Shown here: in pieces, positions 33,213-40,292 of the stretch
How the letters are laid out: every line of letters starts with the position of its first letter
Numbering within the stretch: the stretch's first letter is position 1
Assembly: GCA_043799565.1 (NCBI GenBank)
Contig: JAZDNP010000004.1
Coordinates: 1-57,816 of the forward strand
From: Candidatus Brennerbacteria bacterium
Lineage (GTDB): Bacteria; Patescibacteriota; Minisyncoccia; UBA6257; GWB1-50-10
DNA: 57,816 nucleotides
Reading direction: 5' to 3'
Notes under the pieces: model-generated
Told to the model about the DNA's origin: nothing
Seen by the model: the letters and a program-made list of their open reading frames with translations, nothing else
The model's database searches: none
Translations under genes and position numbers: made by a program

Positions 33213-33230
33213 AGTTGAACGTATTATTTG

Positions 33231-33305
33231 CGCGGGCGATGGGATTTGAACCCACGACCTTCCCCGTGACAGGGGGACACTCTAACCAGGCTGAGCTACG
33301 CCCGC
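33231..33305 (-). tRNA. tRNA-Asp(GTC)
   Basis: GCGGGCGTAGCTCAGCCTGGTTAGAG..., anticodon arm TCCCC-CTGTCAC-GGGGA, T-arm GTGGG-TTCAAAT-CCCAT, discriminator G. Confidence 0.9.
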
Positions 33306-34655: not shown

Positions 34656-34678
34656 ATTTCAATTCCCTTACCGATATG

Positions 34679-34974
34679 TTGCGGGGGCGGGAATTGAACC
34701 CGCTGCCTTCTGGTTATGCATCTCGCTACGGCTTTCGCCGCCTCCGACATAAAGTCGTGAGTTTGCGGTCTGGACTATACCTTCACCCCTAAGGGTGCTC
34801 GCCGTCTAGTCTCTACACCTTGTCGCGCGAGGCGACCTTGGCTCGGTATTACCATTTCTCGAATTGAAAAGAAGGCTTCACCGAGTTTGACGAGTGTTCC
34901 ATGAATCCTTTCGGAATCATGAGCCCAAATTGAGCCAGGCGTGCAACCGTTACACTTCCCCGCGGAAAAAGTAT
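34679..34974 (-). tRNA. initiator tRNA-fMet(CAT) interrupted by a 224-nt group I intron in the anticodon loop
   Basis: Exon 1 (34974-34943): CGCGGGGAAGTGTAACGGTTGCACGCCTGGCT. Exon 2 (34718-34679): CATAACCAGAAGGCAGCGGGTTCAATTCCCGCCCCCGCAA. C1:A72 mismatch and A73 as in bacterial initiator tRNA. The spliced loop would be CTCATAA. Confidence 0.85.
34719..34942 (-). ncRNA. group I intron (IC3-like, no ORF)
   Basis: The 5' exon ends in U and the intron ends in G. P2 is CATGATTCC-GAAA-GGATTCATG. Core strings CCGAGCCAAGG and AAGGTGTAGAGACTAGACGG...CCTTAGG...GGTATAG closely resemble the Azoarcus tRNA-Ile intron core as I recall it. Confidence 0.85.
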
Positions 34975-35054: not shown

Positions 35055-35735
35055 ATGCGCGTAAAGGAAAAAACCCAGGCCGTTCTTATGCGAAAAAAAG
35101 GAATGAGTATGGGAGAAATTGCAAAGAAACTCCAAGTCAGTAAGGCCTCAATAAGCCGGTGGTCTCGGGGCATAACATTATCTATCGCACAAAGGAAAAA
35201 ACTTGACACACGCCGGCGAGCTATAAGTATTGCTACACTCCGACGTGCCGCGGAAATAAAAAAGGAGGAAAAATCCGCTGAAATAAAAAAAGTTCGCGCG
35301 AACGGAAAAAAGGAGGTCGGCGCATTAAGTGATAGGGATTTTTTCATTGCCGGCCTAGCGTTGTATTGGGGAGAGGGAGGAAAAGGAGGAAAAGCGGGAG
35401 TCGAGTTCACCAATTCAGAGCCTACGAGTATTATGTTTGTCGTGCGATGGCTTAAAAAATTTTATGGAATTTCAAGAAAACATTTAAAACTGCGTGTTAC
35501 CATAAACAGAATACACGAACCGCGCATTCGCGAAGTGTTAAGATTTTGGTCGGGCCTCGTACGTGTATCGTCCTCACAATTTTCCCAAACCAGTTTTGTA
35601 AACACTAGGCAACGCCGATTGTACAAAAATTTTGCTACTCATTACGGCACATTGCGTTTGAACGTAAAAAAGAGCACCAACCTTCACCGCCGAATCATAG
35701 GGTCGATGGAGGTTCTGCAAACGATTGGTAAATAA
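35055..35735 (+). CDS. HTH + LAGLIDADG-like (single-motif) putative homing endonuclease
   Basis: N-terminal HTH MSMGEIAKKLQVSKASISRW. FFIAGLALYWGEGGK resembles a LAGLIDADG motif. A/T-rich gene sandwiched between two CAT-anticodon tRNAs. Confidence 0.55.
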   Translation: MRVKEKTQAVLMRKKGMSMGEIAKKLQVSKASISRWSRGITLSIAQRKKLDTRRRAISIATLRRAAEIKKEEKSAEIKKVRANGKKEVGALSDRDFFIAGLALYWGEGGKGGKAGVEFTNSEPTSIMFVVRWLKKFYGISRKHLKLRVTINRIHEPRIREVLRFWSGLVRVSSSQFSQTSFVNTRQRRLYKNFATHYGTLRLNVKKSTNLHRRIIGSMEVLQTIGK

Positions 35736-35778: not shown

Positions 35779-35850
35779 GCCAGGGTAGCTCAGTGGTAGA
35801 GCGAGGGACTCATAAGCCCTAGGTCGGGAGTTCGATCCTCCCCCCTGGTA
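35779..35850 (+). tRNA. elongator tRNA-Met or tRNA-Ile2 (anticodon CAT)
   Basis: GCCAGGGTAGCTCAGTGGTAGAGCG-AGGGA-CTCATAA-GCCCT, T-arm GGGAG-TTCGATC-CTCCC, G1:U72. Confidence 0.85.
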
Positions 35851-35857
35851 CTGATAT

Positions 35858-36997
35858 ATGAAAGAAATCGTCATTGACTCAGCGGAAGAAAAAAAATTAC
35901 GCGCAGAATTGGAGAAACGGACGGACCCCAATGGACTCCGTATGGCGCGGTTTCTCAATATGCCGGACCTCTCGCGACGAGAAGGCAGTCCTATTGCGGA
36001 AATCGTCGCACGCATATTGGCGAGCCCGTATTTCAAAGATCTCGACATTATCAGAACCCCCGAAATCGTGCCGGCGGACGTGAGTTTCGATCTCTTTGAT
36101 TTTCCTTCCGACCATCCCGCACGTAGCCCATCGGACACATATTATGTGAATGATGGGAACATTTTACGCACCCACACCACCATCATGTGGTATTACTACC
36201 TTTTAAATGAAGACGTGAAGGCGCGTATCGCGGTGAGCGAACCGGTGGGCTGTTTCAGCTTCGGGAAGGTGTACCGTAGGGACGAGATAGACAGGAATCA
36301 CATGAACGTGTTCCATCAGATTGACGGCTGGTATCTTGCGCCAAAATCTTTAAAGACGATAGGGATTAAGGAATTGGAAGAGGCGCTTGGCGCTATCGCG
36401 ACCGCGGTATTCGGGCCAAAGGTGAATTTTCGTTTGAACAAAGACACGTTTCCATACACCGACCCTTCGCTTGAAATGGAGGTTGAGATAAACGGAGAAT
36501 GGGTTGAGGTCGTCGGCTGTGGCGTGGTAAAAGGGAGTGTGCTCGAAAAAATGGGCGTTGACTCGTCGAACTATACCGGATGGGCGTTTGGTTTCGGGTT
36601 GGAGCGTTTGGCAATTGTGAGCATGAGCCTTCCCGACATCCGGCTTCTTTGGTCCGAGGACGAACGCGTGAAGCGTCAGCTCAAACTCGGAAACGAGTAT
36701 AAAGAGGTGAGCAAATTCCCTCCCATCACGCGCGACATCTCATTTGTGGTTGATACAGGTTTTGTGCCGAACGATTATTTTGACCTTATCCGGGACATCG
36801 GTGGCGACATCGTGGAAGAAGTAACACTTTTGGATAAGTATGAAGATGAGAAAAAGTTTGGAAGTGGTAAGATAAGCTACACCTACCGAACGGTGTATCG
36901 TTCGAACGAGCGGACGCTTACCGTGGAGGAAATCACTCCGATACAGGAGGACATAACCAAAGAAACAAAAAAGCGGTTCAATGCGCAAGTACGCTGA
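35858..36997 (+). CDS. pheS: phenylalanyl-tRNA synthetase, single-chain form: alpha-type catalytic core fused to a C-terminal FDX-ACB anticodon-binding domain
   Basis: Class II motifs FDFPSDHPARS, GKVYRRDEIDRNHMNVFHQIDGW and GWAFGFGLERLAIV. These are followed by KFPPITRDISFVVD...DLIRDIGGDIVEEVTLLDKY...SYTYRTVYRSNERTLT. Confidence 0.8.
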   Translation: MKEIVIDSAEEKKLRAELEKRTDPNGLRMARFLNMPDLSRREGSPIAEIVARILASPYFKDLDIIRTPEIVPADVSFDLFDFPSDHPARSPSDTYYVNDGNILRTHTTIMWYYYLLNEDVKARIAVSEPVGCFSFGKVYRRDEIDRNHMNVFHQIDGWYLAPKSLKTIGIKELEEALGAIATAVFGPKVNFRLNKDTFPYTDPSLEMEVEINGEWVEVVGCGVVKGSVLEKMGVDSSNYTGWAFGFGLERLAIVSMSLPDIRLLWSEDERVKRQLKLGNEYKEVSKFPPITRDISFVVDTGFVPNDYFDLIRDIGGDIVEEVTLLDKYEDEKKFGSGKISYTYRTVYRSNERTLTVEEITPIQEDITKETKKRFNAQVR

Positions 36998-36998
36998 T

Positions 36999-37430
36999 AT
37001 GACGCCCATCATTAAATTTTTCGACAAACTTGAGGACAAGGTACGCGGATGGCTTTCCCACTATCCGATCCTCTACGGTATCATTGGCGGCATCGGTACG
37101 GTGCTCGCGTGGCGTGGTATTTGGCATACGACGGATTTCATTTCGACCCATTACTTCCAGAACGGCACCGAAGGAGTCCTTGGTACCATGAACTACCCCG
37201 TGCTTTGGGATGGCCTTGCGTCGCTCATTATCGGTGTGGCGATACTTCTTGCGACAGGCCTCTTTGTCGCGGGTTTTATTGGGGATCACATCCTCATCTC
37301 GGGATTGCGTCACGAAAAGAAGGTTACTGAGAAAACCGAGGAGGAAGTTGAAGAAGAGGCGGTGCGATTAAAAGGATTAAAGGTCCAACTGGACAGGATA
37401 GAGAAGCGATTGGAAGAAATGAAAAAATAG
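36999..37430 (+). CDS. hypothetical membrane protein with a C-terminal coiled coil
   Basis: Two TM helices (YPILYGIIGGIGTVLAW, LASLIIGVAILLATGLFVAGFIG), then an EEEVEEEAVRLKGLK segment. ATG lies 1 nt after the pheS stop. Confidence 0.55.
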   Translation: MTPIIKFFDKLEDKVRGWLSHYPILYGIIGGIGTVLAWRGIWHTTDFISTHYFQNGTEGVLGTMNYPVLWDGLASLIIGVAILLATGLFVAGFIGDHILISGLRHEKKVTEKTEEEVEEEAVRLKGLKVQLDRIEKRLEEMKK

Positions 37431-38138: not shown

Positions 38139-40292
38139 TTACTCGAAGTGTACGCGCTTGGCGAATTCCGTAAGCCGGGCACGTAAATTCGGCTCCCGAG
38201 CGAGTTCCGGATCCTTTTTGAGAATAGCTTCGGCCGCCAGGCGGGCTTTTGGCACGAGCGTGGGATGCGCCAAGGCCTTCATCGCAATATCGGGCATTCC
38301 GGTCTGCACGGTACCTAGGAATTCTCCCGGTCCTCGGAGCTTCAGGTCTTTTTCCGCAAGCTCAAAGCCGTTCTTCGCGCACACAACCGCCTCCAGGCGC
38401 TCACGCGTGGCTTTTGTGGAGGATTCGGTGAAGAGAAAGCAGAACGACTGGTGGAAGCTTCTGCCCACGCGCCCGCGAAACTGGTAGAGTTGGGCGAGGC
38501 CGAAGCGCTCGGCACTTTCCACTATCATCACGGTCGCGTTTGGCACGTCCACGCCCACCTCCACGACGGAGGTGGCGACGAGAATGTCGGTCGTGCCTTC
38601 CGCAAACCGCCGCATGATCTCCGCTTTTTCTTTTGCCTTCAGCTTTCCGTGGAGCATCTCAACTTTTAGGTCGGGAAATATTTTTTTTGAGAGCTTCTCG
38701 TATTCCTCCGTCACGTTTTTCATTTCGAGCCGTGCGAGCGTTAAAGGGTCGAGCGTTTCCCCGGTCTCAATGTTGGTAGGTTGAATGCGTGGGCAGATGA
38801 CGAACGCCTGCCTCCCCTTTTTCACGAATTCCTTAATGAACGAGTAGGCCTTCATGCGATTCTCTGGAGCCACCACCTTTGTGAGGATCTCTTTCCTGTC
38901 CTTCGGGAGCTCGGTGATCTGTGAAACGGTAAGGTTGCCGAAGAGAGTAAGAGCGAGCGTGCGGGGAATAGGAGTTGCGGACATGGAGAGGAAGTGGGGA
39001 GCGGCGCCGTCCTTTGCGAGCGCGGCTCGCTGCGCCACGCCGAAACGGTGTTGTTCATCCACCACCACAAACGCGAGGCGATGGAAGCTTACCCCCTTCT
39101 CGATGAGTGCGTGGGTGCCTATGGTAATAGCAACCTTCCCTGCTTTCAGTAACGCGCGAAGTTCCTCTTTTTTTATCTCTCGCTCCAATCCCTCGCCGAG
39201 AAAAATATATGTTTCGCTTCCGGTGAAAAGAGCGATACCTTCCTCAAAGTCGGGGAAGAATTTTTTGAGCGTCGCGTAGTGCTGGAGTGCGAGTATCTCG
39301 GTCGGCGCCATAAAAGCCGTTTGGTACCCCGCTCCCGCGACTGCGCGCGCCGCGATGGCCGCTACCACGGTTTTCCCCGACCCCACGTCTCCTTGGAGAA
39401 GCCGGTTCATCGGGTGAGGAGCGGTTATATCGTCCAGTATCTCGTGGAGCGCTACCACTTGTGTATCGGTAAGCGTGAAGGGAAGTTTCGCAATCACCTC
39501 TTCTAAACGTTTTTTAGGAAAACGAATTGGATTCGCGTTCTGCTGTTTTATGCGCGCGCGTTCGCGGGCGTTCACGAACTCAAGAAGAAAAAGGTCTTCA
39601 AATGCAAAACGCCGCCTCGCTTCTTCGGCCTCTGTGAGTTCATCAGGGAAATGCGCGTGGCGAAGCGCAACGTCGAGCGGAGGGAGTCCTTCCTTTTTGC
39701 GTATCTCGTGCGGGAGAAATTCCTCCGCATCGGCAGATTCGAGGATTGGGCGAAGGATATAGCGGATACCTTTGGATGTGAGCCCGCGCGTTTCTGGATA
39801 AATGGGGACGATGCGCGCGGTGTGGGTGGGGCTAGCCCGGCGCTCGGTCGCCCAAGGGTCGTGGCGTTCGTGCTCGCGCACGAACTCGAACGCGGGATTG
39901 GAGAAGTAAAGTTCGCCGTTCTCGCCCTCCGACACTTTGCCGGAGAAGTTCGCCCTGATGCCGGGACGGAGCGTGTTCGAGAGGTATGGTTGGTTGAACC
40001 ACACCGCGCGGATGAAGTCCTCGCCGTCCGTGATGACGGCTTCCGTAACGTAGTAGGTGCGGCGCCATGTTTTTCGGCCCGTTATCTCATAGATCTCGCC
40101 TTGAATGGTCGCGTCCTGGCGCGGCTCCAGTTCCGCGATGCGGTACACGTGTGAATAGTCCTCATACCGCGAAGGAAAATGGTAGAGGAGATTGCGGACG
40201 GTGGTGATGTTAAGGCGTTTTAATGACGCAAGATAGCGCGGCGCGATGCCGTGGATGTCTGCGAGAGACGTCTCAAGCGCGATTCCACCCAT
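38139..40292 (-). CDS. recG: ATP-dependent DNA helicase RecG
   Basis: Wedge/OB N-terminal domain, Walker A GDVGSGKT, DEQHRFG, and helicase C motifs QFRGRVGR. Confidence 0.92.
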   Translation of the reverse strand: MGGIALETSLADIHGIAPRYLASLKRLNITTVRNLLYHFPSRYEDYSHVYRIAELEPRQDATIQGEIYEITGRKTWRRTYYVTEAVITDGEDFIRAVWFNQPYLSNTLRPGIRANFSGKVSEGENGELYFSNPAFEFVREHERHDPWATERRASPTHTARIVPIYPETRGLTSKGIRYILRPILESADAEEFLPHEIRKKEGLPPLDVALRHAHFPDELTEAEEARRRFAFEDLFLLEFVNARERARIKQQNANPIRFPKKRLEEVIAKLPFTLTDTQVVALHEILDDITAPHPMNRLLQGDVGSGKTVVAAIAARAVAGAGYQTAFMAPTEILALQHYATLKKFFPDFEEGIALFTGSETYIFLGEGLEREIKKEELRALLKAGKVAITIGTHALIEKGVSFHRLAFVVVDEQHRFGVAQRAALAKDGAAPHFLSMSATPIPRTLALTLFGNLTVSQITELPKDRKEILTKVVAPENRMKAYSFIKEFVKKGRQAFVICPRIQPTNIETGETLDPLTLARLEMKNVTEEYEKLSKKIFPDLKVEMLHGKLKAKEKAEIMRRFAEGTTDILVATSVVEVGVDVPNATVMIVESAERFGLAQLYQFRGRVGRSFHQSFCFLFTESSTKATRERLEAVVCAKNGFELAEKDLKLRGPGEFLGTVQTGMPDIAMKALAHPTLVPKARLAAEAILKKDPELAREPNLRARLTEFAKRVHFE

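Follow-up and report, generated by a model that had tools for sequence, protein, structure and literature searches.

Phenylalanyl-tRNA synthetase (PheRS) of the canonical bacterial type (TIGR00468/TIGR00472; T. thermophilus 1PYS, E. coli 3PCO) is an (alpha-beta)2 enzyme of two chains, PheS and PheT, with ~1100 residues per alpha-beta pair, and this heterotetramer has been described as conserved in all known prokaryotes (PMC3275996). The organellar enzymes (human FARS2, PDB 3CMQ/3TUP; yeast MSF1; TIGR00469) are made of one chain, in which a PheS-type module is followed by a C-terminal FDX-ACB domain, and carry neither the N-terminal coiled coil nor an editing domain; according to the review literature, no class II catalytic module other than mitochondrial PheRS is monomeric (PMC3275996). 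AARS Online exemplifies its class PheRS-M solely by human FARS2/3CMQ (PMC11580382). A 2024 study groups the PheRS of giant viruses with the organellar ones, and the passages concerned do not mention bacteria of the candidate phyla radiation (CPR) (PMC11304981). A published description of a bacterial single-chain PheRS was not found in our literature search. Here we analyze a stretch of 57,816 nucleotides (nt) from a Candidatus Brennerbacteria bacterium, an ultra-small member of the CPR (Patescibacteria), called the window below, which corresponds to contig C5 of the genome. It contains a gene (35858..36997, + strand) whose product, protein P0001 of 379 amino acids (aa), shares the one-chain architecture of the organellar enzymes. 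We consider it very likely that this protein is the only PheRS of the cell, that its gene displaced the ancestral pheS-pheT pair in place, and that it comes from a lineage of bacterial proteins whose sister group is formed by the organellar enzymes.

Two domains account for most of the protein. Residues 63-274 (36044..36679, +; tRNA-synt_2d, PF01409, E 8e-54) form a catalytic core of the class II PheS type, which contains motifs 1-3 and FPYTDPS, the loop of the Phe pocket. Residues 285-379 (36710..36994, +; PF03147, E 5e-23) form an FDX-ACB anticodon-binding (ACB) domain, whose homologue in bacterial PheT is domain B8. An earlier note on this DNA, made from its letters, had proposed the fusion of an alpha-type core to an FDX-ACB domain of ~95 aa, and the Pfam search confirmed it, the second match covering profile positions 1-94 of 94. 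The C-terminus also aligns to positions 694-798 of the pheT_bact profile (TIGR00472). The absence of the N-terminal coiled coil of bacterial PheS, likewise proposed in that note, is evident from the bacterial pheS profile (TIGR00468), which matches only from position 92 to position 322 of its 324 positions, with 154.6 bits against a cut-off of 237.45; the structural model has ~60 residues of short helices ahead of the core. Compared with the canonical enzyme, the core and the ACB domain are homologous to PheS and to PheT B8, and the presumed substrates are the same, whereas the coiled coil and domains B1-B7 are missing, and hence the B3/B4 editing site as well.

The rest of the genome (661,984 bases in 15 contigs, estimated to be 96.2% complete) offers no second candidate among the genes searched for. 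Profile searches of all contigs detected no pheT, their only matches being the ACB domain of P0001 itself and a 107-aa tRNA_bind protein on contig C7, and they detected no second pheS, the gene in the window being the sole PheS-like gene of the genome. The B3/B4 editing domain (PF03483) had no match in the genome even at E <= 1. A tRNA-Phe(GAA) with discriminator A73 is present at C6:52318-52390. A whole-genome search for pheT and a second pheS had been suggested in the earlier note, and its outcome supports the minimal PheRS without an editing domain that was foreseen there.

A survey of ~240 related genomes, consisting of 41 relatives from the same family and order and an even sample of 201 genomes from the phylum, gave a consistent distribution of the two forms. 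The single-chain gene was found without pheT in 21 of the 41 relatives (identity 48-100%) and adjacent pheS-pheT without the single-chain gene in 19; the one remaining relative, with neither form, is a 320-contig assembly that is 88% complete. Across the phylum sample pheT was present in 187 of 201 genomes, a tally that includes G194 (unpublished), and the single-chain gene in 11 (~5%), which belong to at least six families and to several classes; a full pheT was missing in all 11. None of the 31 carriers examined has a complete pheT, several of them being 100% complete in 1-10 contigs, and the genomes devoid of pheT other than the carriers are four assemblies with a completeness of 77-87%. 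Among the pheS-pheT genomes examined, none had the single-chain gene. One genome, G046, was considered as a carrier of both forms and was rejected, its pheT match being a 137-aa tRNA_bind protein that covers profile positions 38-156 only.

The location of the gene indicates how one form gave way to the other. Within the family of the window, the single-chain gene has a tRNA-Asp/tRNA-Met cluster on one side and a convergent recG on the other (the window; L005-L007, L011, L038-L041); in most loci of family f1 this cluster adjoins the PheRS gene. In the window this slot is marked upstream by tRNA-Asp(GUC) (33230..33305, -; Aragorn and Rfam) and tRNA-Met(CAU) (35779..35851, +; Aragorn, and Rfam with 66 bits), and downstream by recG (38139..40292, -), which is homologous to the recG flanking the single-chain gene in L006, L007, L011 and L038-L041. 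Sister genomes from the window's own family (L014, L018, L019) have pheS-pheT between tRNA-Met genes and recG. Since the orders tRNA-Met(s)-PheRS-recG and tRNA-Met(s)-pheS-pheT-recG match within one family, the single-chain gene replaced pheS-pheT in place. In other classes the neighbours of the single-chain gene differ.

Several lines of comparison relate P0001 to the organellar enzymes. In a phmmer search of the PDB, human mitochondrial PheRS was the top match (E 1e-57), the best bacterial PheS reaching 3e-34. The parallel to FARS2 drawn in the earlier note proved sound, as the human mitochondrial enzyme shows CYRITYRHMERTL opposite the residues quoted from the window. Identity to the organellar enzymes is 33-41% across both domains. 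Taken separately, the core is 33-40% identical to theirs (136-154 bits) and only 26-29% identical to the PheS of sister genomes in the same family (103-117 bits), and the ACB domain is 36-41% identical to theirs (67-86 bits) against 30-34% for the PheT of the same family (47-60 bits). The AlphaFold2 model of P0001 has a predicted local distance difference test (pLDDT) of 95.7 and a predicted template modelling score (pTM) of 0.91. Its best Foldseek matches are structures of human mitochondrial PheRS in the closed form (5MGV/3CMQ), which align over the whole chain (~388 columns) with a template modelling (TM) score of 0.78 and a root-mean-square deviation of 3.5 A; for bacterial PheS chains the match is confined to the core of the model, with TM ~0.55. 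A prediction of the two-copy homodimer scored 0.00 against a mark of 0.42, a value that weighs neither for nor against dimerization.

Phylogenetic analysis places this protein beside the organellar enzymes and not among them. When 1.84 billion cluster representatives were searched exhaustively, 246 clusters were obtained at E <= 1e-30, and the named members that were looked up include the mitochondrial PheRS of amphioxus and shark, fungal and choanoflagellate proteins, a chromerid PheRS, and one protein from an Oligoflexia metagenome-assembled genome (MAG). In the maximum-likelihood (ML) tree (LG+C20+F+G4), which is rooted on the canonical PheS of sister CPR genomes only, and in which unnamed metagenome proteins are labelled organellar on the basis of their TIGR00469 score and their clustering with named eukaryotic sequences, the single-chain proteins are separated from CPR PheS with a support of 100/100; the ML tree as a whole is consistent with a quick tree of 90 rows. 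The organellar clade is supported at 98/91 with P0001 outside it, and the CPR clade is its sister; the CPR proteins are joined at 94/75 with the protein from Oligoflexia and with another that is unnamed. Unlike its organellar counterparts, P0001 would serve as the sole cytoplasmic PheRS of a bacterium.

When P0001 was aligned with the organellar enzymes, SrmL and CPR PheS, the catalytic motifs were, as read from this alignment, intact. Conserved elements are DHPAR...DTYY, LRTHTT, motif 2 GKVYRRDEIDRNHMNVFHQIDG, motif 3 GWAFGFGLERLA and the pocket loop FPYTDPS, and residues R89, R104, R140, D142, H148 and Q154 are invariant in 76 sequences. The Phe pocket is also conserved, including the Thr that follows FPY and the Ala in GWAFG, which we take to be E. 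coli T251 and A294. Specific to the CPR proteins are an insertion of ~10 residues ahead of motif 2, FPY in place of FPF, and Asp in place of Glu in HQxEG. P0001 does not have the insertion of ~30 residues by which motif 2 is separated from the FPF loop in animal enzymes.

The conserved motifs, the sole-copy status of the gene and the presence of tRNA-Phe together suggest that P0001 charges tRNA-Phe with Phe. In the mechanism that we propose, the PheS-type class II site would activate Phe with ATP and transfer it to A76 of tRNA-Phe, and the C-terminal ferredoxin-fold ACB domain would read the anticodon GAA (G34-A35-A36) as it does in FARS2; reading of the anticodon by this domain is established for the human mitochondrial PheRS structure 3TUP. 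Loss of the B3/B4 site of the beta subunit, which hydrolyses Tyr-tRNA-Phe, would leave the cell without post-transfer editing, and we infer that no trans-editing factor is present. Without a B3/B4 site, discrimination against Tyr would have to rest on the synthetic site alone. Yeast mitochondrial PheRS reportedly relies on the specificity of its synthetic site, and the PheRS of Mycoplasma is said to have lost editing, both according to work of the Ibba laboratory. These small-genome or organellar systems would resemble the one described here in dispensing with proofreading of Tyr-tRNA-Phe; Mycoplasma reportedly keeps a beta subunit with point changes in the editing site, whereas in the P0001 system nothing of beta is left except B8.

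Some observations weigh against this interpretation. The genome is a draft in 15 contigs, and, judged from this genome alone, a gene may have been missed. No curated equivalog model claims P0001: its top NCBIfam match, pheS_mito (TIGR00469), gives 244.1 bits against a curated cut-off of 258.35, and the second, SrmL (NF051887), gives 241.5 bits over profile positions 22-345 of 349 against a cut-off of 300. The pocket loop has FPY where most PheRS have FPF, and HQIDG takes the place of the usual HQxEG, an Asp that is also found in some organellar enzymes. At NCBI, moreover, the relatives are annotated as 'hypothetical protein'; the JGI label is 'PheRS alpha chain'. Regarding the pheS_mito cut-off, the CPR clade straddles it, since the CPR relative P0121 passes with 264.3 bits, and all scanned members of the large organellar clade pass. 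The designation 'mitochondrial-type' used in the earlier note consequently holds for the architecture, the fold and the sister-clade position of P0001, and does not hold for membership, as the protein falls outside the organellar clade and below this cut-off. The second rank of the SrmL model and the draft state of the genome would also suit an accessory PheS-like paralogue, an SrmL-like 'mystery ligase', with the real pheS-pheT lying in the ~4% of the sequence that the assembly lacks. SrmL does have the same two-domain, single-chain architecture and a similar length. However, the one true SrmL in our representative set, P0223 (422 aa), scores 415.3 bits on NF051887, shows altered pocket and motif residues (HPY, GLASG, PHQVD) unlike those of P0001, contains 10 Phe (2.4%, against ~5% in P0001 by our own count), and stands alone outside the CPR clade on a very long branch (2.3-2.9). 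A grouping of P0001 with such a paralogue of other function, a check named in the earlier note, was not observed, and membership of P0001 in SrmL was rejected on its score and its separate branch. Furthermore, the lack of a complete pheT in 31 of 31 carriers, some of them fully complete, and the position of the gene in the pheS-pheT slot are at odds with an accessory role, which we regard as extremely improbable.

The same position, exactly that of pheS-pheT in sister genomes, could be produced by a recent and independent deletion in place, running from the end of the local pheS to B8 of pheT; such an event would yield the observed architecture, and the mitochondrial resemblance would be convergent. 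Against such an event, both domains are nearer to the organellar enzymes than to the PheS and PheT of the same family, the single-chain proteins group at 100/100 against CPR PheS, and P0001 and the organellar enzymes have linker and ACB motifs in common. On domain-wise similarity and the tree we rejected a recent local fusion, which appears very unlikely. A different proposal accepts that P0001 charges tRNA-Phe and adds help in trans from the stand-alone 107-aa tRNA_bind protein (B2-like, Trbp111-type; C7, L002:1480-1803; PF01588, E 1e-27), which would contribute affinity for tRNA. This gene is present in the genome, and the relatives P0079, P0080 and P0096 (~505 aa, 75% identity) carry a tRNA_bind domain fused at the N-terminus, a fusion that fits a tRNA-charging role of the family. 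Yet stand-alone tRNA_bind genes are equally found in pheS-pheT genomes (G008, G017, G028, G033), and the 107-aa protein shares no more than 28-30% identity with the fused domains. Stand-alone tRNA_bind proteins are, besides, general tRNA chaperones in many bacteria, and we consider a dedicated partnership of this kind rather unlikely. The B2-like domain (PF01588) occurs as a stand-alone protein of ~107 aa in many relatives as well as in this genome, and the CPR PheT proteins of the window's order are without the first ~155 profile positions (B1/B2).

We retain the view that P0001 is the only PheRS of the cell and one member of a bacterial lineage, the origin and spread of which can be approached from the tree. 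As the CPR and organellar groups are sisters, a transfer into CPR from crown eukaryotes, after the last eukaryotic common ancestor (LECA), is disfavoured; for the same reason the tree does not show which group was donor and which recipient. As a tentative proposal, about which we have more doubt than confidence, the one-piece PheRS may be a bacterial invention, perhaps the product of an ancient fusion of pheS and pheT in place within CPR, and the mitochondrial PheRS of all eukaryotes may have come from such a donor before LECA, not having been assembled in eukaryotes from the pheS and pheT of the endosymbiont. Within the phylum, a tree of 29 CPR proteins conflicts with taxonomy, its well-supported branches requiring that the window's family be placed at five or more separate points. 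G154, a genome of another class, has a protein (75% identity) that is sister to the window's subclade with a support of 98/98, and the proteins of three other-class genomes nest with one of the same order at 100/99. Because of this conflict, and because only ~5% of the phylum carries the gene, the simplest reading would be repeated lateral transfer in Patescibacteria, displacing pheS-pheT lineage by lineage. Within the family, transfer may have occurred by recombination in the conserved regions on either side of the gene, the tRNA genes and recG. The Oligoflexia protein of the tree, P0126 (MBX7144632.1, 414 aa, from a MAG of Bdellovibrionota type), is a single-chain PheRS that nests in the deep CPR group at 98/97, a placement that suggests either that CPR exported the gene or that the contig was mis-binned.

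The immediate surroundings of the gene suggest how it may be expressed. The tRNA-Met(CAU) on the same strand ends 6 nt before the ATG of the PheRS gene, and a tRNA-Met lies directly 5' of the gene, with a gap of 0-3 nt, in G002, G001 and G011 as well. A same-strand tRNA-Met ending 0-7 nt before the PheRS start was also noted in several genomes of the family (L005, L007 and L039 among them), and where a genome has pheS-pheT, its tRNA-Met genes lie on the strand opposite to pheS. A distance of 0-7 nt leaves no room for a Shine-Dalgarno sequence. Consensus matching, a weak method and the only one applied, revealed neither a promoter-like site in the gap from the tRNA-Met to the PheRS ATG nor a terminator-like site separating the PheRS gene from the one that follows. 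Given the closeness of the tRNA to the start codon and the lack of a promoter-like site between them, the PheRS gene is probably co-transcribed with tRNA-Met, and a nearly leaderless mRNA would be translated after processing of the tRNA. As the earlier note had stated, the gene that follows is not pheT: the next ORF (36981..37430, +) overlaps the PheRS stop by 17 nt and encodes a small putative membrane protein of 149 aa with two hydrophobic stretches, recognized by eye, and without any Pfam match. Homologues of it lie 3' of the PheRS gene in L005 (44% identity) and L007 (70% identity), so that this neighbour is conserved within the genus only.

Other features were observed on the upstream side. 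A tRNA(CAU) gene (34672-34963, -) is split between U33 and C34 by a group I intron of ~214 nt (Rfam RF00028, whose gathering score is just reached at 50.2 bits). This tRNA, which Rfam and reading by eye detect, is missed by Aragorn even with its intron options; for the entire genome the program reports a single other CAU tRNA. In the interval from the intron-bearing tRNA to tRNA-Met, an ORF of 226 aa (35055-35735, +) with an N-terminal helix-turn-helix (HTH_23, E 2e-6) looks like an insertion, since the syntenic loci of relatives have no counterpart. Beside the tRNA cluster there are two adjacent genes for papain-like peptidases (C39-like and NlpC/P60; 33340-34322, -), which are kept in L005, L040 and L041.

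A bacterium living on a one-piece PheRS of 379 residues would be an exception to the stated rule of a heterotetramer in prokaryotes, and it would provide a natural experiment in which a cell does without proofreading of Tyr and m-Tyr. The locus is, moreover, a clean example of an essential translation gene that was displaced by a xenologue while the locus stayed fixed. Most members of the family carry the label 'hypothetical protein' at NCBI, and annotation pipelines may consequently report their genomes as lacking PheRS. Finally, these proteins would be the closest known prokaryotic relatives of FARS2, and with them the origin of its chimeric architecture becomes testable.
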